From positions 1 through 64,000 of the IMG/VR virus record IMGVR_UViG_3300043449_001497: a DNA stretch of 64,000 bases. One strand, given 5' to 3'. Both the position numbers and the translations under genes were made by a program. Origin of the DNA: a virus. The notes beneath the pieces were generated by a model. It did no database searches. It was not told the origin of the DNA and saw only the letters and a list, made by a program, of their open reading frames with translations. Of the stretch, positions 11,101-51,407 are shown one piece after another. Numbering within the stretch: position 1 is the first letter of the stretch; the number at the start of each line of letters is the position of its first letter.

Positions 11101-11107
11101 CTTCTAG
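2150..11107 (+). CDS. Giant 2985-aa putative ejection/polyvalent protein with a zincin-like metallopeptidase motif
   Basis: Strong codon bias; PTTLLHEGAH (HExxH at 7148-7162) with downstream EELFARAFE; coiled-coil and Ala/Pro linkers. Confidence 0.75.
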   Translation: MSVPPRPRRVILVRPEGAMDPKTYEQVKAINESLKIQQEAEAKALEAARKPAPRAEARPSAPRAQAPAKPAAPKVVAPVQVGAPVKQTKASAASVVTPPVTDATRKSKVDDDLRQDLKLEDLYRNVGMLPPTLEAKERVNASIRALSAKTGLEPQRYKELAAIQGVDLNDLDQKAREGMPFENYRKAKEGAIGFVPADKRVAMFEDLAKDYETAEQGKIRTDKRIDLAAAKEARGTVPGLTTGYVVGGTTSEETPEVAKSGEHYYAVAEAYLKAVDKDPEVVRLVNLYGNSLASGATQKYINDRAQQLLKNKGITPSSPDAERLASLARRQALYEVLARKTVGQWTPGIFVKDVQVTDDAAAPGLFAAMAPNIELIGFNSKGDAVFRQESAAGMGLRLLDVVGVVPIPGKKLPVPIPGQSLLAGMLTKGENETYYEAASRGAQTGANWLEVALDATEGQSLPMRGAAGLVGLAGSMVHPDVTAAAGALGKAGKAYRVARINKAIAREAEPILKELVTAYQARNFDKAAELEKKLATSPTLGPRGAKGHGVVKAYNRGDIAFAQALASINPALKHLDPFLVDNLVAMVGRRGDDALTEFVYEAAGKGSPHMHFGAAAPEIAERTKEGVGTSFETYLNSGNFDRRIERIKMARDAYAKTIPKTADEALAKTFNDAVERVKGRLVDARLAQIPESELQKEIRLLQLMEEHRAALMADPKSWMDKDGLFHTALRNDPITGGDANSTWRQRTYLMDVDNTARRVNDLKSRDFEALKARDLQMFDDALEAVETNIQSRMMSAESLRRNLADKAELRITPIDILDKEMAPGTERLSPYAQASFLVTARQFSQQEMDRKSLLQAYQMLDKAFEGVASRHDMSLEDVWRDFFVKVEQGKVEMPGAGAAKAAGKPPPKPPAKLPAAPSDVPKLANVPNTPEVKAAVEKAAKKGGRARAPAAMHPRTADVVAGIPDEFKTDKLTPEAASKVMSFFSKLGLDAKFPEKLGGVDQEAFDAVRAYLMATGELELKGKKLVKVFEEVPAAPTTLAGQAAKVAPEAPRVTMQGLQDELDDISDDLAQVEADLATAREDGDDAALAELARAEENLLDRRDELAAQLEQAKAAPAEAPVPATAPTLPDTEIQQAVTEAKAVEAVAAKVDEVAQEVAPAEAVVEAPAPAAVEAPVKAAKPPRGKKAKAAAVPATATPVETATVDELQAAINNVDESLDEVAETIQRAEDDANEAQVTWLRGVVEKNLRERKAGLEARLTRLQAAAPRDLRELPPEVQAKVEDLAGGVYQNVVQALKQPDAVRKSPQAYADSYKDVLAEMWDSPYDFERAWPAMRDRVELSAANALDAVEVPATMENLGNRALWKNVKAKGRIGASTGMLEARVGTVEFRISTVPAAKEGNPPVFQVMARVGDEFENLGPKAGYATLEDALRALTPAGGKPAPLRSKIDSVISSGVRKASIPKKGAKQAKVVEEVAEEALDEAVPEQVARLEEAAPGAEEAPAVVPAPTMTGEQYRAKAVEELGKITHSVVKADGTKVYGVVEGDNFVPKYTLSTSEMRDPTDALYFKASRGSTAIDEPVALAKSGARPESLQATVKKIEKLPENALYQRGEVLVEADKLVGRLVEVEKGKIEFLTPEQIKDLKNQNDPTAIVTLFRGVADPTTLLHEGAHYIRRMGLAAEDMDAVTKWIRSQGVDVTHKFGNFDGTAEAVEQAEELFARAFEQYLLKGEAPEPQLTSLFQKVKEVFEKVYRTISTSPLGKDIDPDVKAVFDRLFKSVPQKKPESTFDLLMRHTFNNKGMEQEGSLTALAREAKRRGIPGATVEDLTKLMVDAGNKYGEGFLEQNVIEFPVPVLGKEKWTGADVLELDRRIQMRRNDLELAPLKQALFGEPEEEKATEAIFAALEKPKGVEEGAFSATSRTLARGLTHTVIGGDLTAERVMRNLPPEVRRSINTASNVIENGIGDAITVLSQAIRDGDMDFMYRYLSGETGMAYKTGRRVISSGHEFIGGFLDLYKNAGLSLTGEQRALLQKFAQAVNTRPNINNLRLPQTRSEALASLVFPDLDAIREAQAAEDLGKAPIRAAMQQEAKSMAEALEKFRELKGSDDQGVGSMLAKAMRGATEEGSEISINEFRFTETLLYLAGITQRDGKFFVEVGEDYSKAGLKNAAEILLREAQDIYGTAEDQLFARRVAILVGAYGSASRAKAELAELGLVLTAEERTAYNNWALGYGVTPEMRPRIEQVMRKLGANTTFEPDTILGADVYIPKQARERIADALKKAQFSEQKLTKMGDIYQSIFAFMKKRMTRGNFLLRQRYFMVNTIDHFFQMSLVVGYAPAFQSMSRIALQNALTSPFTGQALEMGVRAVNRLVPGAKIPPDVVEKIRDFFSRGGDKTAGFLREMMGGSKYRVEVNHVLEGRNTPIVIGGRVTTGKRLREIFVAEGILESYNTRRLGAVLRKEGTAFISDGDGIIEAGINDRSLGGNVTTAWARVKDAAIDLSTDVVDDIGDAWAERERVGAAVTLIENGYEPRVACRLTIDALYDYAQSMTKMDRNWFVGLLFPFWAFQKNANQQFINVIATPYGAYRMMVMKRFRDRSSELLTELYYDEVGGELGLDVNSMPQDMQDMYYAVMTKAHEVYGDEIPENAKMALRMGLTGRASEVLDGKYYELDADLIRMLRSGGIGGVGGAGMSDYLMPTPSKSILPSYMRERPGVFLAPRRDAAVRLYSGLRAKNDEMFYLMLPPASFEDAFKHTATVMSTALLMGANLTAMTPAGPLLGLEARGLEGTKIAAAIRPVLDLERSPIAGPVIGMYAERGYPQKLHPLVASFIMNTTDAPILRVPAVNDPFEGDNFMLEMQKLTEEGKEADIAQILGADYVRTVQELNSKELDPNEISTVRDEHFYLPPGGYSIAFENAPLLGELNKELLLKYGKTAQEKAASSDTASLGNLLYILRNATGLEVASVSASRTAQQEEPVFYTKSRKPF

Positions 11108-17201: not shown

Positions 17202-17756
17202 ATGGAACCTCTCAAGTCTTCTGAAACCGCGGCCCCGTCTGCCTCTTCGACTATCCCGGCGGAGACGCCTGTGCAAGCAACCCCCGAGAAAGAGGCGGTT
17301 GTGGCGCAGGTTGTCGACGACGGCGCGGCCACCCCTGTCGAGGTGATCGAAGTCGTCGAGCAGCCCGCTGCCCCCGCTGGGTTCGACCCGATGGCGATGG
17401 CCCAGGAGAACCCGATGCTCGCGTTCGCCCTGGCGGCGCTCGCGGTTGTCGGCGGCGGTGCCGGGTTCAAGCTCTGGACGAAGATGTCCGAGCAGCGTCA
17501 CGAGACGAAGATGAAGGAGCTCGAGCTCGAGGCGCAGAAGGCGGGCCTCAACGGCGCTCAGCCTCCGCCGTGCCAGGTCAAGCAGACCGAGACCGACGCC
17601 AAGCTCGCGTCGCTCGAGGCTCGCGTGAAGAAGGCGGAGAAGGCGGCGTCTGCGGTGCCCGCGGGCTTCGACGGCGAGGAGCTCGAGAAGCGCGTCGTGA
17701 AGCTCGAGGCCGCCATGAAGCGCATGGGCGTCAAGGCTCCTGGGGGTGACAAGTGA
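17202..17756 (+). CDS. Membrane-anchored coiled-coil protein (spanin/holin-like candidate)
   Basis: AAGGAG RBS before ATG 17202; one TM segment followed by a coiled coil; overlaps the endolysin start. Confidence 0.45.
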   Translation: MEPLKSSETAAPSASSTIPAETPVQATPEKEAVVAQVVDDGAATPVEVIEVVEQPAAPAGFDPMAMAQENPMLAFALAALAVVGGGAGFKLWTKMSEQRHETKMKELELEAQKAGLNGAQPPPCQVKQTETDAKLASLEARVKKAEKAASAVPAGFDGEELEKRVVKLEAAMKRMGVKAPGGDK

Positions 17757-18199
17757 CCCTCACCCCTCACTTCTCCTTCGAGGAGCTGACCCGCACGGGG
17801 CAGAAGGACCTCCAGGACGCCAACCGCAAGGAAGCGATGGCGTACATCAAGTCGCTGACGGCGCTCGCGGAGATGCTCGAGGTCATCCGCGCGAAGTTCG
17901 GGCCGATCTCCGTGACGAGCGCCTTCAGGGGCCCCTCTGTGAACGCTCGGGCAGGGGGCTCAAAAACCAGCCAACACCTCGTCGGTGAAGCCGCGGACAT
18001 CGGCTGCGGCGCTTCCGACGAGGAGCTGCACAAGTGGATCGTGACCGAGTCGGGGCTGAAGTTCGGCCAGTGCATCCTGGAGAAGCCGCCCGGCAAGTCC
18101 TGGGTCCACATCAGCTTGGGCGCTCCGTACCGTGACCCGAAGCGTTGCGGCGAGTCTCTGTACTTCGACGGGAAGTCCTACACGCCGAAGAAGTACTGA
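17753..18199 (+). CDS. Endolysin, peptidase M15 (Zn D-Ala-D-Ala peptidase fold)
   Basis: SAFR...N...GG, SQHLVGEAADI and WVHIS motifs. Confidence 0.9.
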   Translation: MTLTPHFSFEELTRTGQKDLQDANRKEAMAYIKSLTALAEMLEVIRAKFGPISVTSAFRGPSVNARAGGSKTSQHLVGEAADIGCGASDEELHKWIVTESGLKFGQCILEKPPGKSWVHISLGAPYRDPKRCGESLYFDGKSYTPKKY

Positions 18200-19485: not shown

Positions 19486-21399
19486 ATGTGGGACCAGCCA
19501 CACTACCGCTACCTCATCGACCCCTCGCTCGCTCAGCACGCCATCGCCGTGGAGATGCACATCCCCGGCACGCTCGCCTGGGCCGTGCAGGGACGCCGCA
19601 AGTTCCGCCTGACGAAGAACCAGTGGCCCGAGCGCGGTGAGCCCAACGTCATTGAGATCTACGCTCCCGCGCACGCTGCGTTCGTGGTCGAGCACTTCTT
19701 CTCCGGATGGGGCGTCCCGTTCAGCGTCGAGCCTGTGAACGGCGCAGACCTCATCGAGCCGTGGCCCTCGACCCAGGAAGGGCTGGACCACCTCGAACGC
19801 AGCGGCGGCTCCCTGCTGGCCAGCGCCGTGAAGCGCGGCGAGTTGAAGCCCCACGTCGCCGACATGGCCACGCCCTACCAGAAGCGCAGTGCTGCGTGGG
19901 CGCGCAACCGCCCGTGGACGATGAACATCTGGCCGTGCGGCAGCGGGAAGACCGTCGGTGCCCTCATTGATGCGTTGACACGTCAAGGCACGGTGCTCGT
20001 CATCTGCCCCGCCAAGGCGCGGCACGTCTGGTGGACGCAGGTCCAGCAGTACACGAACATCCTACCCTGGCGCCTCACGCCCGTGTCCGAGCGCCGGAAG
20101 GGTGAGATGACCTGGCACCAGTACGTCGAGTACTGCGAGACCAACAACCAGCGCCGCTTCATCGTCGTGGGCGCGGAGAGCCTGAACGACCACCTCGAGT
20201 TCGTGGCGGGCTTGAACCCAGAGGTCCTCATCCTCGACGAGCTCCACATCCACGGGCAGTCCAAGCGTTGGAAGGCAGTGCAGGAGAAGGACGGCTCCGT
20301 GGGCTTCCAGCGCCGCCAGACGGCCTCTGGAGACAAGGACGCATGGGCGGTGGCCATCATGGACCTGAGCCGTCTGCCGAGCCTGTCGCTGCGTGTGGGG
20401 CTCACGGCGACGCCCCTGGACGACGGTCGTCCTCGTCGCCTCTGGGCGCAGCTGGACCTGCTCACTCCAGGCGGCTTCGCCCACAGCTACCGTCGCTTCG
20501 CAGAGCGGTACTGTGACGCCCAGGCCAACCCGTACGGCGGCCTCGACGACAAGGGCAGCAGCAACATCGACGAGCTTCGGATGCGGTGCGCCTACTTCAC
20601 GCACGAGGTGCCCTACAGTGAGAGCCACTCGAGCCTGCCTCCGACACGGGTTCAGGTCGTCTACCTACCCGTCGATGCCCAGGACAAGGCCGAGCGCTAC
20701 GATGACGCACAAACTTTCGATCAAGCCATCAAACAGCTTGCACGCCAAGCTCGAGGTGAGTATGAGGATGTGCCCGCGCGGGAACGTCTCATCGAGGCGC
20801 GTCTCGCGGAGGCTTGCAGTCGAAAGCGTGGCTACGTCGTTACGGAGGCTCTTGAAGGGCTGAAGGGGGGCGGCAAGGTCATCGTGTTCACTGCTCGCCG
20901 ACGGGAAGCTGAGCGCTGGGGTGAGGCTATCCGCAAGGCGGTCTCGACTGGTGACGAGGCGAAGGACGCGACGATCTGGGTTGGGCACGGCGGCGTAAGC
21001 GAGACCGAGCGCAACGACATGATCGACGGGTTCCGAAACAGTCCTGGCCCGTGCTGCCTGATCGGCACGGGCCAGGCGTTCGGGATCGCGGTGGACGGCA
21101 TGCAAACTGCCGACCTCGCCATCTTCGCCATGCTTCCCTGGAAGCCGGGCGACTTCCTTCAGTGGCGTGGTCGGTTCGACCGTCATGGCGGACGGGCCAC
21201 GCTGCTGAAGGTTGTCGTCGCCTCCGCGACCTACGATGAACGGGTCGTCGAGATCCTGACCGACAAGTTCGGACCCATCGAGCAGTTCCTCGCGGCAGAC
21301 GAGCTGACTGGCATGGGCGAGAAGCTGCTCGGCATGGAAGACCGTGGCGCTATCGTTGACGACGTGGTATCGAAGCTCGTCATCCTGGACGACGAATGA
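19486..21399 (+). CDS. SNF2-like superfamily 2 helicase
   Basis: CGSGKT, LILDELH, LTATP and QWRGRFDRHG motifs. Confidence 0.9.
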   Translation: MWDQPHYRYLIDPSLAQHAIAVEMHIPGTLAWAVQGRRKFRLTKNQWPERGEPNVIEIYAPAHAAFVVEHFFSGWGVPFSVEPVNGADLIEPWPSTQEGLDHLERSGGSLLASAVKRGELKPHVADMATPYQKRSAAWARNRPWTMNIWPCGSGKTVGALIDALTRQGTVLVICPAKARHVWWTQVQQYTNILPWRLTPVSERRKGEMTWHQYVEYCETNNQRRFIVVGAESLNDHLEFVAGLNPEVLILDELHIHGQSKRWKAVQEKDGSVGFQRRQTASGDKDAWAVAIMDLSRLPSLSLRVGLTATPLDDGRPRRLWAQLDLLTPGGFAHSYRRFAERYCDAQANPYGGLDDKGSSNIDELRMRCAYFTHEVPYSESHSSLPPTRVQVVYLPVDAQDKAERYDDAQTFDQAIKQLARQARGEYEDVPARERLIEARLAEACSRKRGYVVTEALEGLKGGGKVIVFTARRREAERWGEAIRKAVSTGDEAKDATIWVGHGGVSETERNDMIDGFRNSPGPCCLIGTGQAFGIAVDGMQTADLAIFAMLPWKPGDFLQWRGRFDRHGGRATLLKVVVASATYDERVVEILTDKFGPIEQFLAADELTGMGEKLLGMEDRGAIVDDVVSKLVILDDE

Positions 21400-22382
21400 A
21401 CAAGATCCTGATCGATGCAGGCAAGAGCTCTCGAGGCTGGAGCCGCATCGGCAACTACTTCCACTGCCCGCAGCTCTTCGCCTACCTCTGCCGCACCGAG
21501 CAGATGGCGGACGAGAGCGGGTACTTCCCCAACCTCGGACCGTCCATCGAGGCGCTCGCCAAGGGCAGCATCGGTCACACGATGCAGGCCCACCTCCACG
21601 CCATCTGGGGCGCAGCTCAGCCCCAGGGCGTCGTCGCTGACGAGACGCTCTACACCGACCCGTCGGTGTTCATGGACCCGGAAGACGCGGCGGATGCCTG
21701 GTGCGCCAAGTACGGCAGCGAGCATCTGCTCGACCAGATGAAGACGGTCTTCCGCGCCTACCGGGCGAGGTTCCCGGAGTCGCCTGGGGATGTCATCGCC
21801 GTCGAGGCTCCGGTCACCGCGGTGCTCGGGAACCTGAACGGGAACTGGGGTCTGTGGGTTGCCGAAGAGAGGGGCGGCGAGTGGCGCAGTCTCGATGGGA
21901 CCAGCATCGAAGTGACGCCCTTGAACATGCCCGACCACAAAGAGCACGGACGTCCGATCACGCTCACTCGCCGCATCGACCTGGTAACCCGCGATCAGTC
22001 AGGCCGCTACTACATCTGGGACCACAAGCACCAGGCGAATGTGAACGCCAAACACAGCGCCACTGCGTACGCCATCGACGGTGGCTTCGCGGCGTTCCGC
22101 ATCATGGGCAAGCAGCTCTACGGCGACGCCTTCGGCGGGGTGACCATCAACCTCATCTCGAGCACCGAGCCGGGGAAGGTGGCGCGCGCCCAGGTCCCGG
22201 CGACCCCTCATCGGGATGCCCAGTTCGCCCAGCAACTCTGGCAGGCCGAGCATGCCATCGCTCAGCTCGACATGACCACCGACCCGTGGGAATGGCCGAA
22301 GGCTCAGAACGAGCTCTCGTGTTACGGGCGGTACGGTCCCTGCGCCGGGATCAACTTGTGCTCCCTCGGCCGCGCAGGCTGA
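21396..22382 (+). CDS. PD-(D/E)XK exonuclease, Cas4/AddB-like with Fe-S cysteines
   Basis: N-terminal CP, RIDLV...WDHK, three C-terminal cysteines. Confidence 0.8.
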   Translation: MNKILIDAGKSSRGWSRIGNYFHCPQLFAYLCRTEQMADESGYFPNLGPSIEALAKGSIGHTMQAHLHAIWGAAQPQGVVADETLYTDPSVFMDPEDAADAWCAKYGSEHLLDQMKTVFRAYRARFPESPGDVIAVEAPVTAVLGNLNGNWGLWVAEERGGEWRSLDGTSIEVTPLNMPDHKEHGRPITLTRRIDLVTRDQSGRYYIWDHKHQANVNAKHSATAYAIDGGFAAFRIMGKQLYGDAFGGVTINLISSTEPGKVARAQVPATPHRDAQFAQQLWQAEHAIAQLDMTTDPWEWPKAQNELSCYGRYGPCAGINLCSLGRAG

Positions 22383-22449
22383 GCGGGGGTGCGTTTCGTC
22401 GTCTTCGGCCCTACGACGAGATGGTTTCACATGGGCCACCAGGACCAGC

Positions 22450-23439
22450 ATGACCACAGAGAACCCGACCGTCATGGTCGCCGTGTACGGCAAGCCGAAG
22501 AAGAAGAAGACCAGCGACGTGCTGGCCGCCTTCCCGACGGCCCTGTGCATCGGCGTCCCCAGCGCCATCACGCTCGTTGCCCAGAACGAGCTGGGCTTCA
22601 CCCCTGCCATCTACCCGACGCCGCCCCAGACGCTCCCTGAGCTCGTCGGGCTGCTCGAGTACCTGGGCCAGTCCGGCATGGCCGCGCAGTACGGCGCGGT
22701 CTTCATCGACGACGCCAGCCACATCTGCGACCGCAGCATCACGATGTGGCACGACGAGGCGCCCGTCGGCAAGAGCGGGAAGAAGGACAAGTTCTACGCC
22801 TACCAGCAGCTGAACAAGTACCTGCTCGCGCTCTCGGGCATGGCCCGCCACATGGGCATCCACCTCATCTTCACCTTCCACGAGCGCGCTCCCGGCACCG
22901 ACCAGGACGGGTTCTTCCAGCCGGGCGGTCCGTCGCTCGGCTCGAGGAAGCAGACCGAGTCCTTCCCCTCCTGGTGCGACATCAACGTCCGCGCCATGAT
23001 CGACTCGAGCTACCCCGACCCGTGGTTCCCCGGCGTCTACTTCTGCGACCCCACGTCGCCGGAGTGGGTCACGGGTGACCGCACGGGCGTGTGCTGGACG
23101 AAGACCCCCGGCAACCTGCGCGAGATCCTCCGTGCCTCCGCCGGGGGCTACAAGCTCGCGCGCGTCGCGGGGCTCGAGTGGCAGGACGACATCGCGGACG
23201 AGCTGGCGAAGATGATCGTGGAGACCGGGGACATCAACGGCTCCATCAAAAATCTTTCCCAGTCAAATCCGCGGTTTACGGACGGGACGGAACAAATCCA
23301 TCTCCGTTGGGCTTGCCAGGATGGTATTGCCCGCGCTACCTTCATGAAGCGCAAGGCGAGGAACCTCTTCGACCTCGCGCCCAAGGAAGAGCCCAAGAAG
23401 GGTGGCGGCGTTCCGCTTCCTCCCCCTCCCACGGCCTGA
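22450..23439 (+). CDS. AAA_24/Sak4-like ATPase (recombination)
   Basis: VYGKPKKKKTS deviant P-loop, VFIDD, IFTFHE; lies between the nuclease and the SSB candidate. Confidence 0.7.
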   Translation: MTTENPTVMVAVYGKPKKKKTSDVLAAFPTALCIGVPSAITLVAQNELGFTPAIYPTPPQTLPELVGLLEYLGQSGMAAQYGAVFIDDASHICDRSITMWHDEAPVGKSGKKDKFYAYQQLNKYLLALSGMARHMGIHLIFTFHERAPGTDQDGFFQPGGPSLGSRKQTESFPSWCDINVRAMIDSSYPDPWFPGVYFCDPTSPEWVTGDRTGVCWTKTPGNLREILRASAGGYKLARVAGLEWQDDIADELAKMIVETGDINGSIKNLSQSNPRFTDGTEQIHLRWACQDGIARATFMKRKARNLFDLAPKEEPKKGGGVPLPPPPTA

Positions 23440-42072: not shown

Positions 42073-43506
42073 CTAGTTGACGGCGCGGCTGGCGAGGACC
42101 GGGAGCAGCGCACCAGCGGCACGCTCGACGCGCCAACGCTGGATGTCGTCGAGCATGCCTTCGTGGGCAGCCCGCGTCACGGCGTTGAACACGTCGGCGA
42201 GCGTCTCGCCCTGCTCCGCATCGAAGCCGCGGAGGAGCGACTCGACCATGACGTCGCGAGCGATGTCGGCGTCAAGGTCACCCGACGAGACGAGCGCACG
42301 GAGCATGGCACGCGGGTCGGTGTACCGCTTGCCGCCGACCGTGACCTTGTTGATGGGCGTCTCACGGAGCACGCTCCAGGAGTCCAGGAAGAACTTGGCC
42401 GCGTCGCCGGACTGCACGACGAGGGTCTGCACATCCTGGCGGATGCGCTCGAGCCCCTGGGCGGTCAGGTCTTCCTTGCGGCTGCCCTTGTGGACACGCC
42501 GCATCGAGTCGCCGCCGAACGTGCCCGTCGTGCAGTTGATGCAGATGACACGGGTGAAGGACTGTCCGCCCATGTGCGAACCCAGCCCTGCGTCGTTCGT
42601 CTTTCCGGTGATACCTGACTCGAAGACGTCGCCAACCGACGGCCGGAAGGTTACAGGCGCATGCCACGACGCCCGAATGGTGACGTCGGTGGTCTCGCCG
42701 TTGTAGGCAATCGCTCCGCGGGGGTCCGGCAGACCCAAGCGGTCGAACGCCTCGACGTAGGTGCTCAACACCTTGTCGGCGTCCATCGGCATGTAGCTGG
42801 GGGACACGGCTGCGAACGCCTGCCACGTGCCGTTCAGCTGGCGGCACCGCAGCCGCAGGTTGCGCTCGTCGTCCCCGTAGAACTCATGCAGCCGGGAGAG
42901 CTGGGCGTTGACCACCTCAGCACGGTCGTCGGCGTGGAGCAGCGACAGGAACTGCCAAGCTCCGGGGAACGCCTTGGGGAAGCGGGAGACGAGGCCCTTG
43001 AGGGCGTTCGGCTCCAGCCACAGTGCGCCACTGCCACGGCTCAGGGTGCCGTCAGGCAGAAGGCGGAGAGCCTTCGCGTCGCCGACCTGCGCGTCGGTGC
43101 GCTGCTCTGCGCGGATGGTACGGACCACCTCGCGCGCGGCCTCGCGGAAGGAGGGGAGCTCGTCGTGCCGCTTGGCGAGCGAGCCGAACTTGGCCCGCCC
43201 TTCAGGCAGCATCTCCGTGCCCGCCGCGAACCAGGGAGGGGGAGCGGCGAAACCACGGGCAGCCAGGAATGCCTCGGCCGCCTTGATGCGACGCTCGGCT
43301 TCCGGGTCCATGTCCACCCCAGGACGAAGCTCGGGCTTCGCCACGGGAGCGGGAGCGGTGTCGACGGGAACGAGCGAACCCGTGAACCCAGCGGCAGCGT
43401 ACTGCCGCATGATGGACTCACGGTCGCCCTCGACAGGGTCCCCGTCGGTGCGCCGCCACAGAAGGCGAGCGGGGAGAGCGGGGGTGTTGTCGTTGTCGGT
43501 ATTCAT
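42073..43506 (-). CDS. DUF932-like protein
   Basis: VSPSY.PMD, 'TND.G.GS...F.RVICINC', RRVH and TLADVFNAVT motifs. Confidence 0.65.
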   Translation of the reverse strand: MNTDNDNTPALPARLLWRRTDGDPVEGDRESIMRQYAAAGFTGSLVPVDTAPAPVAKPELRPGVDMDPEAERRIKAAEAFLAARGFAAPPPWFAAGTEMLPEGRAKFGSLAKRHDELPSFREAAREVVRTIRAEQRTDAQVGDAKALRLLPDGTLSRGSGALWLEPNALKGLVSRFPKAFPGAWQFLSLLHADDRAEVVNAQLSRLHEFYGDDERNLRLRCRQLNGTWQAFAAVSPSYMPMDADKVLSTYVEAFDRLGLPDPRGAIAYNGETTDVTIRASWHAPVTFRPSVGDVFESGITGKTNDAGLGSHMGGQSFTRVICINCTTGTFGGDSMRRVHKGSRKEDLTAQGLERIRQDVQTLVVQSGDAAKFFLDSWSVLRETPINKVTVGGKRYTDPRAMLRALVSSGDLDADIARDVMVESLLRGFDAEQGETLADVFNAVTRAAHEGMLDDIQRWRVERAAGALLPVLASRAVN

Positions 43507-43587
43507 GTCTTCCTCTCGATGTTGACGGGTGACTCGGTACTAGACCGACTCAGACGCACCGTCGTTGAACGATGCGCCTGCGGCGAG

Positions 43588-43848
43588 CTAGCGTTGGTTG
43601 AGGTTGGCCTCGTCGAGCTCGAAGGCTCGAACGAGGGCGGCGGCTACAAGGTCCGCCTGCAAGTTGCGGAGGTCTGCTGCCTGCGTGTCGCGGGAGCTGA
43701 AGTAGACAGCCTGCCCGTCCATGACGACGGTGTGGAAGTCCACGTCGAGGGCTTCCAGCGCACGCCACACGGCAGTCCGCTGGATGTGCGTGAGGTTGTC
43801 GAACACGATCACGGTGTCGCCCGTGGGACCAGGAATGACTGCGGACAT
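43588..43848 (-). CDS. Hypothetical protein
   Basis: GAGG RBS. Confidence 0.55.
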   Translation of the reverse strand: MSAVIPGPTGDTVIVFDNLTHIQRTAVWRALEALDVDFHTVVMDGQAVYFSSRDTQAADLRNLQADLVAAALVRAFELDEANLNQR

Positions 43849-43858
43849 GGTGTGCCTC

Positions 43859-44161
43859 TCAGTAGATGGTGATGCGGGCGTCCCGCAGCTTGAACCGGAC
43901 GGGCTCACCCTTGAAGTCGGTGACCCAGCTTTCCTCTTCGTAGCGGTGGCCCGTGACGTAGACCGGGAAGTCGTTGTACGGGTCGTCGGGGCACTCGAAG
44001 CCAGCGATGATGGCGTCCCCGGTGAAGTCGACGCTCTCGACGTGGACGGTCCACCCGACGAGCCGGGAGAGCGTCGCACGCACGGTGTCGAGGTCGGGCC
44101 CGTCGACGGCGAACCCAAGGTTGAACCCGAACCAGCGGGCGGGCGCGGTGTTGTCGGTCAT
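43859..44161 (-). CDS. Hypothetical protein
   Basis: GGAGGCAAGCATG start. Confidence 0.6.
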   Translation of the reverse strand: MTDNTAPARWFGFNLGFAVDGPDLDTVRATLSRLVGWTVHVESVDFTGDAIIAGFECPDDPYNDFPVYVTGHRYEEESWVTDFKGEPVRFKLRDARITIY

Positions 44162-44376
44162 GCTTGCCTCCTAGCTGGCTGGCTGCCAGCCATGTTGATG
44201 TAGTCTGAGGTTGACACGGTGTCAAGACCCTGCGCGTCGAGGTTCCGGGCAGCCTGGTACATGATGGCTGCGTGCGGGTTCCCCAACAGGTCGACGACGA
44301 GGACGAAGTCCACGTCGCGGATGGTCATGCCCCGGCACTGCTCGAAGATGCGTTCCAGCGCGTCCTCGTAGGTCAT
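44158..44376 (-). CDS. Hypothetical protein
   Basis: ATGA coupling. Confidence 0.5.
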   Translation of the reverse strand: MTYEDALERIFEQCRGMTIRDVDFVLVVDLLGNPHAAIMYQAARNLDAQGLDTVSTSDYINMAGSQPARRQA

Positions 44377-44657
44377 GCCACACCCCCACGCATCACTGCG
44401 ACGAGGTCGAGGGTCGCGGGGTCCGCTGCCAGCGCGGCGAGCCGCTTGGCGTTGAACCGGGTCGCCTTCTCGAGGCTCTTCCACTCTGCTGCCCCCAAGG
44501 GGTAGCCTCGCACGCCGCCGCCAAGGTCGCGGTACGGGGCCACGAACACCGCGTACACACCGTGACGGTAGGTCAGGTAGGCGTGGACGTGAGTCGTGTC
44601 GTGCTGGTCGTTGACCTGCTCTTCGTCGAGCAGGTTGATGGATCGATTGTCGTTCAT
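44373..44657 (-). CDS. Hypothetical protein
   Basis: AAGGAGG RBS. Confidence 0.6.
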   Translation of the reverse strand: MNDNRSINLLDEEQVNDQHDTTHVHAYLTYRHGVYAVFVAPYRDLGGGVRGYPLGAAEWKSLEKATRFNAKRLAALAADPATLDLVAVMRGGVA

Positions 44658-44728
44658 ACTTGCCTCCTTCGGTCTAGACCGACTCTGATGCCGCGAGAGA
44701 GGCTGTCCCTCGCGGCACCAGCGGCGAA

Positions 44729-44932
44729 CTAGCCCAGCACGTCGCGGAGGATGGGGTCTTCCTCCGCGCGGCGGTTGCTCTCAGTGTCGAGGTCGCGGGC
44801 TGCCTGAAGCAACCGCGCGAGGTTCCCATCCATGCCCGCCTCGTCGGCGAGGTCGGGGTCCACCTTGTGGAAGGTGGAGTAGCTGGCGGCGCGCTCCACG
44901 ATGCGCCCCAGCGTCTTCAGGTGTCGGCTCAT
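44729..44932 (-). CDS. Hypothetical protein
   Basis: GGAGG RBS, ATGA coupling. Confidence 0.55.
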   Translation of the reverse strand: MSRHLKTLGRIVERAASYSTFHKVDPDLADEAGMDGNLARLLQAARDLDTESNRRAEEDPILRDVLG

Positions 44933-45300
44933 GCTGCACCTCCCGGAAGGGCGGCGACAATCGCACGAACCGCGGCGACGACTACGGGGACGTCGTCGTG
45001 AACGTCGGCACGAAGCTCGCCTAGGCTCACGGCGTGGAGCGGGTCGAACCACAGTCGGCGCTCCCCGTTGTAGGGGTCCAGCTCCAGCTTGCGGTCGAGG
45101 ACGAGGTCCACGACTACGGGACTCTCGTCGAGCTCTGCGCCGGACCCACGGGGCCACACGCGAAGCTCCCAGCCCTCGTCCCCGTAGACGGAGACGACGC
45201 CGTCGGAGTCGTCGCTTGCGTCGATGCCCGCTGCGTTGAGGGCGTGGGCGATGACCTCACCCGCTGCCAAGATGGCGGCGTCCAAGTCTTCCGCGCTCAC
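44929..45300 (-). CDS. Acidic hypothetical protein
   Basis: GTG start overlapping the upstream stop. Confidence 0.55.
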   Translation of the reverse strand: MSAEDLDAAILAAGEVIAHALNAAGIDASDDSDGVVSVYGDEGWELRVWPRGSGAELDESPVVVDLVLDRKLELDPYNGERRLWFDPLHAVSLGELRADVHDDVPVVVAAVRAIVAALPGGAA

Positions 45301-45440
45301 GGGGTCACCCCCACCAGCGTCCAATCGAGAGCCAGGAGGAAGAGACCCCCCGCCACGATGAACACCCAGGCTACCACCTCGACGAGAGGCCAATCGATGG
45401 GGGACGGCCGCCCCATCCGGGTTACTCTGTACTTTGCCAT
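45297..45440 (-). CDS. Small membrane peptide (47 aa)
   Basis: GGAGG RBS; hydrophobic stretch VVAWVFIVAGGLFLLAL. Confidence 0.5.
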   Translation of the reverse strand: MAKYRVTRMGRPSPIDWPLVEVVAWVFIVAGGLFLLALDWTLVGVTP

Positions 45441-45519
45441 GTTGTCCTCCGGGTTGTTGATGTTCTAGGTCGACTCAGATGCAGCGAGAGGTGTTGCCCC
45501 TCGCTGCACCTGCGGCGGT

Positions 45520-45825
45520 CTAGTACAGTCCAGCCTCTGCCAGCTTGGCAGCCAGCTTCTCGAGCCGCTCCATGGTGCGGACCGGGATGGGCCGCTCCCA
45601 AGGGTCGCTAAACGTGCCCTCGTTCAGGGCGAGCGTGAGGCTCGCGCTGAAGCAGTGCACCTCGCTTCCGTCGCGCAGGTCTGCGCTCACGAACCAATCC
45701 TGTCGCCAGCCGGGCTGGCCCTCAGGACCCACGTCTCGACCGTCGGGCAGGGGCCCGTCGGGCTCGACGTTGTACACCCCGATGCGATGCACCTTGACCA
45801 GCGGGTGCGGATGCTCGCCCGTCAT
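45520..45825 (-). CDS. Hypothetical protein
   Basis: Coupled ORF. Confidence 0.55.
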   Translation of the reverse strand: MTGEHPHPLVKVHRIGVYNVEPDGPLPDGRDVGPEGQPGWRQDWFVSADLRDGSEVHCFSASLTLALNEGTFSDPWERPIPVRTMERLEKLAAKLAEAGLY

Positions 45826-46425: not shown

Positions 46426-47028
46426 TCACTCGTCGTGCGCCGCCTTGAGAATGCCGCGCACCCTGTCCACGACCTCGCTCAGGGGGAGGTCGAGGGCCAA
46501 CTCGTCGACGTACTCGTACGCTCCGCCATCGTACCGCAGGGTCACGATGTCAGCGGTGAGCGCGTTGCGCTCGTCGAGGTCGATGCTCACCCGCAGTTCG
46601 CAGGTCTCGAACCCCCACAGGACGCGCACCCGACCGTCACCGTAGTGCGTGCAGGGGATGCCCGCACGCTGCATCTCCACGGCCAGCGTGGCACCCGCAC
46701 TGTGACAGAGCACGTCGTGCTTCTCCGCCTCGCTGATGGCCTCACGGAGGGCCGCGGCGGGCTCGAGTTCCGGGATGGGGAACTCACGCAGGTAGCGGGC
46801 GAGGAACACCTCGACCTCTTCCATCCAATCGTGCGTCTCGCCCCACTCGACGTCGGCGTACACCCGCTGGAAGGCGAGCGTGCACCCGACCACGTAGTCG
46901 GCGAACTCCACGACCGGGAGGTCGACGCCCGATGCGCTCAGCATCCCCCACAGTTCGCGGGAGAACGCCGCCGCCGTCGCGCCATCCACGGGACGCACCC
47001 ACGCCGGGGTGATGTCGTTCGTCTTCAT
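46426..47028 (-). CDS. Acidic hypothetical protein
   Basis: GGAGGCAAGCATG start. Confidence 0.6.
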   Translation of the reverse strand: MKTNDITPAWVRPVDGATAAAFSRELWGMLSASGVDLPVVEFADYVVGCTLAFQRVYADVEWGETHDWMEEVEVFLARYLREFPIPELEPAAALREAISEAEKHDVLCHSAGATLAVEMQRAGIPCTHYGDGRVRVLWGFETCELRVSIDLDERNALTADIVTLRYDGGAYEYVDELALDLPLSEVVDRVRGILKAAHDE

Positions 47029-47107
47029 GCTTGCCTCCGTGGCAGACTCTGAGCGCTCGCCGCCGGGCCTGCCAGCCGGACGGCACGCCGCACCACCGGG
47101 GTACAGG

Positions 47108-47137
47108 ATTGTACCACCGTGGCACGCAATGAAGCAA
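47108..47137 (-). promoter_or_regulatory. sigma70-like promoter
   Basis: TTGCTT-18-TACAAT with TG extension. Confidence 0.6.
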
Positions 47138-47492
47138 ACATACCATGCACTCACGACGTTTCGCTTAGTCCCACCGAACCGGGCTTTCGCAGTCACGGCA
47201 CGGGTTTACGCGGCAACTAGGCGTATCGCACTGTCGCACATGGTAGACCCCCTTTACATGTAGATGCACTTACATGTAGGGGCTACACGAGGGAGATGCA
47301 GGTAGGGTATATGCACTAGGTGGATACAACCGTATGTCTCTCTATGCTCTCGTCATCGTTCAGCTTTCGCCGAACGGTGGGTCTAGCGATAGCTGGAGGC
47401 TATCGCAGAGGCGGGACCCATAGGCCCAGCCTATCGAACGGTCGACCCATACCGACCCACCGCGTGAACGGTGAGCCGGGATTGAACGGCCG

Positions 47493-48796: not shown

Positions 48797-48825
48797 AGCA
48801 TACCATGACGGTATGAACCCGTCAA
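48797..48825 (-). promoter_or_regulatory. sigma70-like promoter
   Basis: TTGACG-17-TATGCT. Confidence 0.7.
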
Positions 48826-48847
48826 GGGACGCTAGCGGTCTAAGCTC

Positions 48848-48946
48848 TGAAAGAGCGGGGCCGGGGCCCCTGAGGGCCTGAGCCCCCGTGGTCGGCGTTT
48901 CCGCTTCCCACGCTTTCAATATGCCCCGTTCCTACCACGGCGTCAA
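48848..48946 (-). promoter_or_regulatory. sigma70 promoter plus boxA-like element
   Basis: TTGACG-17-CATATT (48946-48918); CGCTCTTTCA at 48857-48848. Confidence 0.7.
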
Positions 48947-49256
48947 GGTCTCACGGGCTGCCCGTCACACGGGCGCGCGACGCACGCCTGACCCGGCCGC
49001 GGGCCCGCTGGCGGCCGCTGCCCCTCAGGCGGCGGGCCGCCCTCTGGAGCCGCCGCACTCCACCCCTCCCTCCTCCACCCTCTCCGGCTGTTCCACCCTC
49101 TCCGGCTATACAGGGTCCCCTGACGGGGACCATTGAAGAGACGCACTGAGAAGCCCCAGGAGCTCGACGCCAGGGGGAGGGGCTACCTGGGTAGCACCCT
49201 GTCCTAGATCGTTGCTCCTGGGGCTTCCCAGTGCGGTTCCTGCGGGGTCCAATGGA

Positions 49257-49287
49257 AAGGCCCCCGAGGAGAGGTTCCTCGGGGGCC
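49257..49287 (-). terminator. Intrinsic terminator
   Basis: GCCCCCGAGG...CCTCGGGGGC hairpin followed by CTTT. Confidence 0.65.
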
Positions 49288-49295
49288 GGGATGAG

Positions 49296-49493
49296 TCAGA
49301 GACTGTGGAACTTGGCTTCGGATTCGACCAGCTGGTTGAACCGAGCCCGGTCGGGCTCGGCTGCGCCCTCGAGGAAGAGTTCCCCGGTGACGACACCGCG
49401 GTCGCGGGTCAGGGTGGCGGCGATGATGAAGTAGCCCTTGCTCTTGTAGTTGTAGACGAGGTAAGCCCCGTCGTCGAACCGATGAATGAACAT
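49296..49493 (-). CDS. Small early protein
   Basis: GGAGACAAGCATG start. Confidence 0.6.
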   Translation of the reverse strand: MFIHRFDDGAYLVYNYKSKGYFIIAATLTRDRGVVTGELFLEGAAEPDRARFNQLVESEAKFHSL

Positions 49494-49554
49494 GCTTGTC
49501 TCCAGAGAGTGGGAGACGGGCCAGGCCGAGGGCACCTGACCCGTCTCGAGTGGG

Positions 49555-49779
49555 CTAGCTGATGTAGCGGATGACCACGATGCGGGTACCATCTGCGCGG
49601 CGAATCACGAGGCGCTTCTTGTAGCCGCGACCGATGTTGATCGCGCTGTAGTAGAACCCTGCCTGTTGCGGCGTGTCGAGCGTGAAGCGGGGCTTGTATG
49701 CACCGCGGTAGCGTCCGACCTCGACGTGATAGGTGTCGCCGTCTTCCCACTTGGTGATCTTGCCATCGATGTTGAACAT
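49555..49779 (-). CDS. Small early protein
   Basis: GGAG RBS; 'AINIGRGYKKRL'. Confidence 0.65.
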   Translation of the reverse strand: MFNIDGKITKWEDGDTYHVEVGRYRGAYKPRFTLDTPQQAGFYYSAINIGRGYKKRLVIRRADGTRIVVIRYIS

Positions 49780-49828
49780 GCCTGTCTCCGATTGAAAGCG
49801 GGGGCCACGGGCACCCCCATTGATTGAA

Positions 49829-50044
49829 CTAGACCGAACCGTAGGTGCTGTGAATCAGCGTGCCGCAGTCGCATTCGATGGGATCGCCTTCCGCGAACTC
49901 ACCGCACCGCACGGTCTCGCCGTTGCGGAAAGCGTCCTTAGCGCAGGCCACGCAGACCGGGGCGTGCCGCACGATATGCAGGACGTTGACGATACCGTAG
50001 TGGACATTCTTAATGTGCTGAATGTCCGTGATAACTTCGAGCAT
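49829..50044 (-). CDS. Small Zn-binding early protein
   Basis: VCVACA...ECDCG. Confidence 0.6.
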   Translation of the reverse strand: MLEVITDIQHIKNVHYGIVNVLHIVRHAPVCVACAKDAFRNGETVRCGEFAEGDPIECDCGTLIHSTYGSV

Positions 50045-50126
50045 GCTTGACTCCACTAGAGTGAGGGGGAGACACGCTAGGCGACGCTTGCCGCACGCGG
50101 GGCGTCGTCACTACCATGCTATGGGG

Positions 50127-50216
50127 TTGTGAAAGAGCGGCGGGACCGAGGCCCCCCGTCAGGTCCGCTTCCGTTCCTGACATCTACAGTATGCCCCGTC
50201 TAGTGCATGGTGTCAA
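50127..50216 (-). promoter_or_regulatory. sigma70 promoter plus boxA-like element
   Basis: TTGACA-17-CATACT (50216-50188); CGCTCTTTCACAA at 50139-50127. Confidence 0.8.
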
Positions 50217-50422
50217 GGTGGGAACGCTACAGGCCCGGATAGGGCGCGTGACGGCCCGGCGCACGGGTCCGGCCCCGCTTGCGCGCGGGCTCGCTCATGC
50301 GACGCCCCGCCCTCCAGCCGTGTCGCCACCCTCTCCGGTACTACCACCCTCTCCGGCATACAGAGCCCCCTGACGGGGGCTGCTAGAAGAAGAGCTCGAG
50401 ACCAGGACCGAGCGGACATGAG

Positions 50423-50456
50423 AAAGCCCCCGAGATCCTGGGGGGACCTCGGGGGC
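50423..50456 (-). terminator. Intrinsic terminator
   Basis: GCCCCCGAG...CTCGGGGGC hairpin followed by TTTC. Confidence 0.65.
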
Positions 50457-50464
50457 GGGATGAT

Positions 50465-50668
50465 CTAGCCGACGATGAACTCGTCGCGGCCACGGTAGAC
50501 GAAGCCGGAGAGGAACTCAGGGCTGACGAGCTTGTAGAGCGGGGTCGTCTCGTCGGGGACAGCCCCGACCGTGCAGACCATGTCGAACTCGTTCTTCTTG
50601 AACGCCGTGCTGTAGGTGCGGACCTTGCGACCGACCGTGACGCGGCAGAGAGGCGGGTAGAACCGCAT
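50465..50668 (-). CDS. Small early protein
   Basis: GGAG RBS. Confidence 0.55.
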   Translation of the reverse strand: MRFYPPLCRVTVGRKVRTYSTAFKKNEFDMVCTVGAVPDETTPLYKLVSPEFLSGFVYRGRDEFIVG

Positions 50669-50730
50669 GTGAACTCCGAAGAGAAGAGAGACGGGCCGGG
50701 CCAGAGGGCGCCCGACCCGTCTCGTGTTGG

Positions 50731-51009
50731 TCAGCTGAAGTCGAGGATGTACGTGAGGAACGCGAGCAGGATCATGGCGCCGATGTTGAGCATCACGATG
50801 CACTGCGTGATGGCGGTGCGAAGTTCACGGCGGCGGCGACCGGGGCGACGAGCCGTGTAGGTCTGAGGGCCGACGATGGGGGCGAACACGAGGGCTTCCA
50901 GTTCCGCGTCGTACTTGCGAACGTAGCGGTAACCTTCGACCATGATGCCGGGCTCAGTGGGACGGTCGGCGTTGAGGCAGATTCCGTCGCGGCAGTTGTT
51001 GCAGTCCAT
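50731..51009 (-). CDS. Small early protein with a C-terminal TM helix
   Basis: GGAGTAGAAGCATG start. Confidence 0.6.
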   Translation of the reverse strand: MDCNNCRDGICLNADRPTEPGIMVEGYRYVRKYDAELEALVFAPIVGPQTYTARRPGRRRRELRTAITQCIVMLNIGAMILLAFLTYILDFS

Positions 51010-51057
51010 GCTTCTACTCCGAGTGAAAGTGGGGCCACGGGCGCCCCTTGAGGTTGA

Positions 51058-51243
51058 CTAGTTACCAGCCTTGACGCTGAGCTTGTGAAGCTTCCGGGCG
51101 AGCCGGAAAGCGTGCCGGGTTGCGGCCTTGAGCGCCACGCGCTTAGCGTTAGCGCGGTTGCCCCACGCCTCGTCGAGGGTCGGGCCCACGGTGAGCCCGA
51201 CGACGAGAGCGACGAGGTACAGGTACATCAGAGTATCGAACAT
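51058..51243 (-). CDS. Small early membrane protein
   Basis: N-terminal hydrophobic helix. Confidence 0.55.
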   Translation of the reverse strand: MFDTLMYLYLVALVVGLTVGPTLDEAWGNRANAKRVALKAATRHAFRLARKLHKLSVKAGN

Positions 51244-51324
51244 GCTTCATCTCCGAGAGTAGGGTGAGGGTCGCACGGCGTACCTGCTAGGGCAGGGGCC
51301 GGGTGACCGAACCAGCGTATGGGG

Positions 51325-51407
51325 TTGTCAGAGAGCGGGGCGGGGAGGGCGTTTCCGTCGTTCCCTTTCCGTGCATACAGTATGCCCTGTCTAGTGACAG
51401 GTGTCAA
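51325..51407 (-). promoter_or_regulatory. sigma70 promoter plus boxA-like element
   Basis: TTGACA-17-CATACT (51407-51379); CGCTCTCTGACAA at 51337-51325. Confidence 0.8.

Follow-up and report, generated by a model that had tools for sequence, protein, structure and literature searches.

Stop-codon-linked CTAG hairpins in the early operon of an uncultured freshwater phage form a covarying element family that may mark RNA-processing sites

The stretch of DNA analysed here (the window, 64,000 nt) corresponds to bases 1–64000 of IMG/VR record IMGVR_UViG_3300043449_001497, which derives from an uncultured freshwater phage, measures 72,743 nt and is rated complete by CheckV. The window has a G+C content of about 65%, and small ORFan genes on its minus strand form a block between 39.7 and 51.4 kb. 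Inside this leftward early operon lie three copies (A, B and C) of an intercistronic hairpin element, which is the subject of this work. On re-reading, all three were found on the minus strand with the coordinates and sequences that an earlier, first-pass annotation of the window had given them. Hairpin A (43540–43591, 52 nt) separates an 86-aa gene (43588–43848) from a 477-aa gene, whose ATG is at 43504–43506. Hairpin B (44674–44732, 59 nt) is located between a 67-aa gene (44729–44932) and a 94-aa gene (ATG at 44655–44657), and hairpin C (45465–45523, 59 nt) between a 101-aa gene (45520–45825) and a 47-aa membrane-like gene (ATG at 45438–45440). Based on the sequence and its open reading frames (ORFs), the TAG stop codon of each upstream gene (43588–43590, 44729–44731 and 45520–45522, respectively) sits inside the first CTAG of the hairpin. 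The closing CTAG is positioned 33, 16 and 24 nt ahead of the next ATG in A, B and C. Both ends of the element therefore fall where they had been annotated, at the upstream stop and before the next gene. The 10 ORFs around the hairpins matched no Pfam or PHROG family, except for a weak match of the 477-aa protein to a PHROG of unknown function.

RNA folding of the sense strand gave −27.2, −36.6 and −36.0 kcal/mol for A, B and C (z-scores of −4.4, −5.4 and −6.2), and none of 200 shuffled sequences folded as well. The antisense strands reached −17.4, −28.2 and −31.7 kcal/mol, so that the sense strand is more stable by 4.3–9.8 kcal/mol. Scores against the covariance model described below were 64, 79.1 and 78.3 bits. 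Hairpin A is composed of a lower stem (CUAGCUCG/CGGUCUAG), an internal loop (CCG/AGU), an upper stem of 12–13 bp and the apical loop UCAA. Hairpin B has the same base and an upper stem of 16 bp; together, A and B represent the form that we call type I. Hairpin C belongs to a second form, type II (CUAGACCG.../...CGACCUAG), in which the downstream complement discussed below is lacking. Exact matches to the 12-base motif CTAGNNCGCCGC in the window, and to its 18-base form in the whole 72,743-nt genome, are restricted to these three hairpins.

The same parts recur in every copy: a weak and imperfect lower stem, P1 (CUAGnUCG/CGGUCUAG), a small internal loop, a strong upper stem, P2, and a freely variable top. 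The first four pairs of P2 are fixed (C-G, N-N, G-C and G.U), and across relatives the base of the hairpin is almost invariant (CTAGnnCG.CGC.GG / C.GAGTCGnnCTAG). The element spans 51–67 nt. Its lower stem of 8 positions, the 3 positions of the loop and an upper stem of 12–17 bp amount to about two helical turns interrupted by the internal loop. ViennaRNA folds the 3x3 loop as a C.U mismatch, a C-G pair and a G.A mismatch. This loop had been described as invariant; that holds within the window, whereas relatives have C, U or A at its first position.

Pattern scans of IMG/VR recovered true copies in four further phage records, and a search with a covariance model built from nine copies added one, in locus L019, which the patterns had missed. 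Whole-record searches of the five hairpin-bearing records (G000–G004) gave 3, 3, 1, 2 and 1 copies. The covariance model identified no copy in seven loci from phages whose version of the 477-aa protein is 69–74% identical. Five of these seven records were then searched whole (G005–G009, 4 of the 5 at least 94% complete), again with no copy, a single marginal match in G005 (17.4 bits, E 0.058) being discounted. A scan of metagenome contigs yielded 37 loci, and a scan of one genome per species across 185,579 species returned a single, chance-like match; relatives are thus confined to phage and metagenome contigs, with 36 distinct sequences. The distinct pattern matches numbered 38, of which two sequences (5 loci) fold differently and were set aside as chance. 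The final alignment (A3) holds 39 rows, 36 of them distinct, that passed the score cut-off in the searched subset of loci, and it includes the L019 copy found by the model alone. The scan patterns themselves fixed CTAG, CG, CGC, GG, GAGTCG and CTAG, that is, most of the bases that we call invariant.

The first-pass annotation had taken the hairpins for a new structured element and had proposed covariance-model and Rfam searches; both were run, with homologues found in phage and metagenome contigs and no Rfam family recognised. At gathering thresholds Rfam gave 0 matches over the whole window, and in a permissive scan of 43300–45700 the best hit was mir-3926 (19.4 bits against a threshold of 82, E 3.2). 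The family thus has no Rfam entry, and its combination of features appears unusual, judged from literature searches aimed at comparator systems and not at the motif itself. The 3′ block standing free of a hairpin was also sought in viral contigs, where only three unrelated chance matches were found beyond the known copies. A crude palindrome scan of the hairpin-less relatives, which also missed known plus-strand copies, revealed no other hairpin family there.

Covariation across the 36 distinct sequences supports the fold. In the model-fitted alignment, 96.5% of 789 pair cells contain standard pairs, compared with 80.7% in shuffles (0 of 500 reaching the observed value) and 29–38.5% when partners were slid against each other. 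Both sides change at 12 of the 16 upper-stem pairs. Pair 13:61, for instance, is A-U in 23 sequences, U-A in 7 and C-G in 6, with invariant neighbours, and pair 15:59 is G-U in 34 of 36 and G-C in the remaining 2. By eye, some 15–18 upper stems are clearly different from one another. The alignment holds 95 G-U or U-G cells against 15 A.C or C.A cells, a bias toward the transcribed strand. The compensatory stem changes, the conserved G-U pair, the variable loops and the missing U tract had all been noted from the three window copies and were borne out by the wider family, in keeping with a structured element for which the transcribed strand is favoured.

The association with the stop codon is equally consistent. 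Of 46 contexts, 44 contain enough upstream sequence for the stop codon and orientation to be assessed. In all 44, the upstream ORF on the same strand, rich in G and C at third codon positions, ends in TAG, and the hairpin has the orientation of that gene. The TAG is inside the CTAG in 34 contexts, directly before it in 6 and two bases before it in 4, and the stop is never more than 5 nt from the start of the hairpin. Stop usage in the early region, by a crude ORF count, is 17 TGA to 7 TAG; the TAG is therefore best regarded as part of the element. In 40 of 43 contexts, a start codon follows 16–47 nt 3′ of the hairpin. T residues are scarce immediately 3′ of the hairpin, with a mean of 0.7 and a maximum of 2 in 10 nt (43 contexts).

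Most copies also carry the means for an alternative fold. In type I (...CGGYCTAG; 39 of 43 contexts, including A and B), a complement to the 3′ foot is located just downstream, whereas type II (CTAGACCG...CGACCTAG; 4 of 43 contexts, including C) has no such complement (0 of 4). For hairpin A the complement (U)ACCGAGUC (43531–43539, minus strand) can pair with the foot GAGUCGGU at 7 of 8 positions, which produces an alternative mini-hairpin, P1′. For hairpin B the complement is ACCGA (44669–44673, minus strand), directly 5′ of the ribosome-binding site AAGGAGG and matched to UCGGU of the foot; here P1′ belongs to the minimum-energy fold of the 83-nt stretch that includes the flank. After stricter removal of duplicate contexts, an RCYG tetramer, which complements CGGY, was present within 9 nt downstream in 36 of 36 type I contexts, compared with 0, 4, 4 and 1 of 36 in control windows. 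The length of the P1′ loop varies among these contexts. A copy can form P1 or P1′ but not both; forming P1′ instead of P1 costs 2.2 kcal/mol on average, and no more than 2 kcal/mol in 25 of 38 contexts.

Four sigma-70-like promoter sites are present in the early block (51407, 50216, 48946 and 48825), all on the minus strand, against 0.8 expected. They form 3–4 repeated early cassettes (TTGACR-17-CATAYT, 48797–51407, minus strand), and three of them are followed, about 60–70 nt 3′, by a boxA-like CGCTCTYT. Three canonical terminators, each a hairpin with a T tract, are located between the promoter cassettes at 50.7–49.3 kb. Scans of the minus strand at 43.5–48.7 kb found neither promoter-like sites nor canonical terminators. 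The promoters nearest to the 5′ side of the hairpins (48946–48918 and 48825–48797, minus strand) would be the ones that drive the operon containing them. By this arrangement, the hairpins probably reside within a long early polycistronic transcript made by the host polymerase from the promoters at 48.8–51.4 kb.

We tentatively propose that the hairpins are cis-acting structures of the early mRNA that are recognised in a sequence-specific manner and act, through a host factor, as T7-like processing or 3′-end-stabilising sites, with a secondary role as recombination linkers. The first-pass annotation had offered three functions: an RNase III-like processing site, a protein-binding motif and an attC-like cassette boundary. 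An RNase III-like or otherwise protein-bound RNA fits best because of the two-turn stems, the conserved internal loop, the invariant base and the intercistronic sites downstream of sigma-70-like promoters. The strand bias, the stop-codon link and an orientation that strictly follows that of the genes likewise favour an element read as RNA by ribosome and nuclease. The fold with its covariation, the strand bias, the invariant base, the stop-codon link, the alternative helix, the missing U tract and the distribution can be seen in the sequences; action as RNA, cleavage and the identity of the factor that reads the element are inferred.

According to this proposal, the invariant base would be recognised by a trans-acting factor, most likely a host RNase III-type double-stranded RNA endonuclease or an RNA-binding protein. 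The reader is assigned to the host because the phage encodes no RNase III; a search for the RNase III domain, positive in known genomes used as controls, gave 0 of 5 among the hairpin-bearing records. As at the T7 early sites, a cut at or near the internal loop would separate the cistrons. The upstream message would then retain P2 as a 3′ hairpin flush with its stop codon, a potential shield against 3′ exonucleases. Once freed, the 3′ foot GAGUCGGUCUAG of type I copies could refold with the conserved downstream ACCGAG(UC), and the resulting P1′ mini-hairpin would form a 5′-terminal cap structure on the downstream message. Because the stop codon is within P1, a terminating ribosome would melt P1 and not P2, which could couple processing to upstream translation. 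A by-product would be crossover at the conserved blocks of 12–25 nt, and gene-plus-hairpin units would therefore be reshuffled and passed between phages.

The early region of T7 carries the RNase III sites R0.3, R0.5, R1, R1.1 and R1.3. In common with these, the element described here consists of intercistronic hairpins in a predicted polycistronic early mRNA that the host polymerase would make, with about two turns plus an internal loop and several copies that share a conserved foot and loop (for the general features, PMC1540722). The same source describes two helical turns with an internal loop as an RNase III substrate that is cut at one phosphodiester and leaves a protective 3′ hairpin. 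Such a double helix of about two turns is present here, with the conserved 3x3 loop between the stems in all copies, and the proposed mechanism shares with T7 the 3′ hairpin left on the upstream message. Unlike the T7 sites, the element has a small symmetric 3x3 loop, starts inside a stop codon, has a downstream complement to its foot and retains about 25 invariant bases across distant phages; these differences set it apart by description, not by sequence comparison, and similarity in sequence would not be expected.

Several observations weigh against a processing site. A search for RNA runs that contain the stretch gave none, and contigs from four runs, probably all of DNA, showed no ends. 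RNase III is not known to require some 25 invariant bases, and such strict conservation points to a more specific reader. That invariance is itself partly built in by the search patterns, the sole copy found only by the model keeping all but one fixed base. The strand bias shrinks to a modest 29 G-U-type against 11 A.C-type cells once the two fixed wobble pairs are left out. Because the alignment was fitted to the model and includes many closely related rows, significance is exaggerated by the shuffle control. Equal covariation and bias would be expected of a hairpin formed in single-stranded DNA with the same polarity. Type II copies (4 of 43 contexts, copy C among them) lack the P1′ complement, and four near-complete close relatives manage without the element altogether.

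Two groups of phage elements resemble the hairpins in part. In T4-type phages, PeSL (promoter-early stem-loop) cassettes are repeated intergenic motifs, concentrated in plastic early regions, that fill the space between an ORFan stop codon and the following ribosome-binding site; they feature a stem-loop with G-T pairs and modular shuffling between phages (PMC2839356 and PMC4122927). The hairpins studied here are alike in being stem-loops between a stop and the next ribosome-binding site, in their position at indel or replacement boundaries and in their behaviour as crossover points. However, PMC2839356 defines PeSLs by a strong sigma-70 promoter fused to the stem-loop, and we found no promoter-like site in or next to the hairpins (43.5–45.6 kb), which places them outside that class. 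Their stems are also longer, and conservation is localised to the hairpin foot instead of promoter boxes. In Cluster K mycobacteriophages, the ESAS comprises 17-bp imperfect inverted repeats with a 4–13-bp spacer next to a 13-bp start-associated sequence (SAS; PMC3203893). The likeness lies in conserved imperfect inverted repeats with a variable spacer, placed before a subset of genes in one orientation and conserved among relatives. In our case, by contrast, the repeats form the foot of a long hairpin that covaries and is linked to an upstream stop; again the distinction is one of description.

Two bacterial elements also have to be considered. The attC sites of integrons are imperfect, strand-specific hairpins with conserved pairing ends, an unpaired centre and a variable top and length, which follow promoterless ORFs in one orientation; their core sequences are RYYYAAC and GTTRRRY. 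The REP elements of enterobacteria are imperfect palindromes with a foot tetranucleotide, situated just after stop codons, and act on mRNA stability and on translation of the upstream gene; they are high-copy chromosomal elements mobilised by RAYT transposases. The phage hairpins share with REPs the imperfect palindrome, the conserved tetranucleotide foot and the position directly after a stop codon. They differ in being absent from the genomes of the 185,579 species scanned apart from the one chance-like match, and no Y1 (RAYT) transposase (PF01797) was found in the 5 hairpin-bearing records (0 of 5; the control was positive in known genomes).

These resemblances raise an alternative to RNA processing, unlikely in our assessment: an element that works at the level of DNA, folds in single-stranded DNA or extrudes as a cruciform, and serves as a recombination or mobility site that moves gene-plus-hairpin cassettes in the manner of attC or REP. 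Its form is indeed attC-like (pairing conserved ends, unpaired centre, variable top, 51–67 nt, directly after ORFs, flush with the ORF stop and in one orientation), and it occurs in arrays of promoterless small ORFan genes. Its distribution is patchy. The distant carriers G001 and G002 have portal and terminase proteins only 37–39% and 44–45% identical to those of the window phage, whereas the close relatives G005–G008 (78–83% and 86–88%) have no copy. A homologue of the 67-aa gene is located directly upstream of a hairpin in the distant G001, and the sole nucleotide match between the window and G001 is an 80-nt patch that ends near that hairpin. Contigs from other samples join 43589 to 43861, which removes the 86-aa gene flush with hairpin A, or 44226 to 44669, which removes genes flush with the 3′ side of hairpin B. 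The phage also encodes a Sak4-like annealing protein and an exonuclease.

We compared how often homology between related loci is broken or rearranged at different kinds of positions. This was the case in 234 of 311 comparisons at hairpins (75%), in 496 of 1052 at gene ends without a hairpin (47%) and in 708 of 1879 at arbitrary positions (38%), although the comparisons are not independent and variable upper stems alone break BLAST alignments. Among 929 internal BLAST endpoints in 34 loci, 151 fell near hairpins, compared with 46.9 expected. These figures lend moderate support to the view that the hairpins are preferred mosaic junctions. In close relatives, the hairpins occupy different gene junctions: in L021 copy 'a' precedes a homologue of the 101-aa gene, which in the window is followed by copy C, and no hairpin is present ahead of the 477-aa gene; in L029, L057 and L058 a hairpin lies directly 3′ of a 100-aa gene.

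The DNA-level alternative nevertheless meets several difficulties. No tyrosine recombinase (PF00589) was detected in the 5 hairpin-bearing records, one of them complete (0 of 5; the control was positive in 14 of 14 genomes), and the Y1 transposase is missing from the same set. There is not one site per gene, as 3–4 genes lie between hairpins in the window, and the 86-aa gene is present in some contigs and missing from others although no hairpin belongs to it. The filled site carries no target duplication when set against the empty site of L021. Neither the co-orientation with transcription nor the TAG link is required by a DNA mobility mechanism, and the element is absent from the genomes of 185,579 species bar the one chance-like match. 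Of the suggestion that the hairpins are attC-like boundaries, the resemblance in form and the enrichment at mosaic junctions stand; the absence of a recombinase, the several genes between hairpins and the indel of the 86-aa gene speak against it, as do the ends, which are CTAGnnCG and CGnnCTAG in all copies and unlike the attC cores.

A second alternative, which we consider improbable, is that the hairpins are attenuators, pause sites or terminators without a U tract, which would lower early-operon transcription stepwise or be read through by an antitermination-modified polymerase. The hairpins are strong, GC-rich and placed directly after genes, and the boxA-like motifs 3′ of three early promoters would suit antitermination. 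In PMC2839356, a T4-type PeSL stem-loop alone terminated as well as rrnB T1. In the hairpin-less locus L025, a terminator-like hairpin (CCGGGGCGC...GCGCCCCGG, then TT, at about 5860–5920) occupies the place equivalent to that of hairpin A, upstream of the 477-aa homologue. A U-rich tract is, however, absent in 43 of 43 contexts, while the phage's own early region uses hairpins with T tracts, and a terminator scan omits the three hairpins. An ordinary intrinsic terminator is thus unlikely, because the U tract is missing although canonical terminators are found nearby. A study of mycobacterial polymerase reportedly found that a U tract is required (PMC3993855). Moreover, a terminator needs no invariant 25-base foot, internal loop, in-stem stop codon or downstream complement, and expression still has to reach large genes downstream, among them the 477-aa gene, which is conserved in 9 related loci.

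We also hold it doubtful, to a similar degree, that the hairpins are translation-coupled two-state switches. In such a switch, a ribosome at the UAG would melt P1, the 3′ foot would flip to P1′, and translation of the upstream gene would be coupled to initiation, or hand-over, at the next. As output, stop and start could be brought close together, or the upstream gene could be throttled by stalling; throttling of the upstream gene by ribosome stalling has been reported for REP elements near stop codons. The invariable TAG within 0–5 nt of the hairpin start (44 of 44) would suit this arrangement, as would the mutually exclusive P1 and P1′, the presence of P1′ in 36 of 36 type I contexts, the small mean energy gap of 2.2 kcal/mol and the next start codon 16–47 nt away in 40 of 43 contexts. 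P1 plus the loop measures 11 nt, roughly the stretch 3′ of the A site that a terminating ribosome would occupy. In the folds, however, the ribosome-binding site stays free of pairing whichever state forms, a weak contact of 3 bp in copy B aside, so that no clear switch output is visible. Type II copies lack P1′ (0 of 4), and only one possible compensatory event was seen for it (CGGC with GCUG, in 2 related contexts), while 3 CGGC contexts keep ACCG. Nor does structure switching alone account for the invariance of the foot sequence.

A narrower version of the DNA-level alternative treats the CTAG hairpins as recombination sites of a phage-borne, integron-like cassette system, in which a recombinase or nuclease of an unrecognised family, ORFan- or host-encoded, would read the folded single strand and move gene-plus-hairpin units within and between unrelated phages of the same host. 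We judge this to be quite improbable.

The least likely of the alternatives, and in our view very improbable, is a double-stranded operator whose conserved outer blocks would be the half-sites of a dimeric DNA-binding regulator. The outer blocks are nearly palindromic, and CGGTCTAGACCG is a perfect 12-bp palindrome in some copies. A plain duplex operator is nonetheless disfavoured because of the covariation, the variable length and the variable loop sizes: the distance between the blocks ranges over 51–67 nt, the spacing inside the 3′ palindrome over 0–4 nt, and the sequence between the blocks covaries as a helix, which is meaningless for a duplex site. There is also a constant difference between the arms (CCG in one, AGT in the other), and duplex DNA would make the conserved G-T an ordinary pair.

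Further candidates were set aside. Hairpin promoters for an N4-like virion RNA polymerase, prompted by a 2985-aa ORF without Pfam or PDB support, were dropped; N4 hairpin promoters are much shorter than these hairpins. Coding by stop-codon read-through or bypass was rejected since the element lengths (51–67 nt) follow no three-base period and only in copy A do the two TAGs share a frame. A miniature inverted-repeat transposable element with a CTAG target duplication was suggested by the single CTAG of the L021 empty site; it is not a simple insertion because the filled site also carries a different leader. As a methylation or restriction motif, finally, neither sequence was informative: CTAG is moderately depleted (59 sites against 99 expected) and GANTC is not depleted (129 sites).

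Phages that are otherwise distant but carry the element also share an M15 endolysin and tail module. The endolysin gene (17753–18199, plus strand) is 61–92% identical in the hairpin-bearing G001–G003 and has no match in the closer G005–G008; together with small neighbours, it is the only clear gene shared with the former and missing from the latter. This pattern suggests a shared host, or a host switch, among the carriers. A presence/absence table drawn up for a carrier-only factor gave structural and lysis genes but no candidate nuclease or RNA-binding protein, with G001–G004 being fragments.

A few model phages have provided the known conserved intercistronic hairpins (the RNase III sites of T7 and the T4-type PeSLs), and uncultured, high-GC environmental phages hardly any. 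The present family has strong comparative backing for its structure and an unusually sharp signature (a stop codon in the stem, an invariant foot with a fixed G-U, a built-in alternative helix), crosses lineage boundaries in step with host-range genes and offers a testable handle on the processing or metering of early mRNA and on ORFan exchange between such phages. Should the reader of the foot be a host factor, the motif could become a host-linkage marker in metagenomes; should cleavage be precise, it might provide a compact cistron insulator for synthetic operons in high-GC hosts.

Outside the early block, the plus strand at 0–39 kb encodes the 2985-aa ORF (family not assigned), an SNF2 helicase, an exonuclease, the Sak4-like annealing protein, a family A polymerase fused to a UDG domain and a DUF927 helicase, and the portal and terminase genes lie at 56–59.7 kb. 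Cultured relatives were found neither by megablast of the hairpin region nor by tblastn of the portal, and the DNA polymerase matched cultured phages at 20–25% identity only. The 2985-aa ORF (2150–11107, plus strand) has no Pfam or PDB relative, matches only phrog_9880, of unknown function, and is 35–61% conserved in related phages. The exonuclease-like gene adjoins that of the Sak4-like single-strand annealing protein (21396–23439, plus strand); the pair could form a recombination module that uses short homologies, for example the hairpin feet.

A weak partial copy had been annotated at about 47045. That position has only CAGAGTC and a similar ribosome-binding site, and the covariance model gave no match there at E≤1. 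A non-coding stretch of about 460 nt (47030–47490, minus strand) precedes the true start (ATG 47028) of the gene at 46426–47028, and it contains CTAGTTGCCGCG at about 47220–47209 and the CAGAGTC at 47051–47045. The stretch, which the covariance model does not detect, may be what remains of an expanded or decayed hairpin element.

Conserved junction sequences are not limited to the hairpins. A 78-nt segment (44149–44226, minus strand) comprises the C-terminus of a 72-aa gene and the ribosome-binding site of the next gene, and it contains a promoter-like TTGACACC...TACATC. It is 91–96% identical in the two closest strain contigs (L059 and L043), compared with about 86–88% in its flanks, and several contigs have an indel boundary there. 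The linker AGGAGGCAAG(C/T)ATG represents a second type of conserved junction, a ribosome-binding site plus start codon that is repeated ahead of three different genes (44151–44172, 44647–44668 and 47018–47039).

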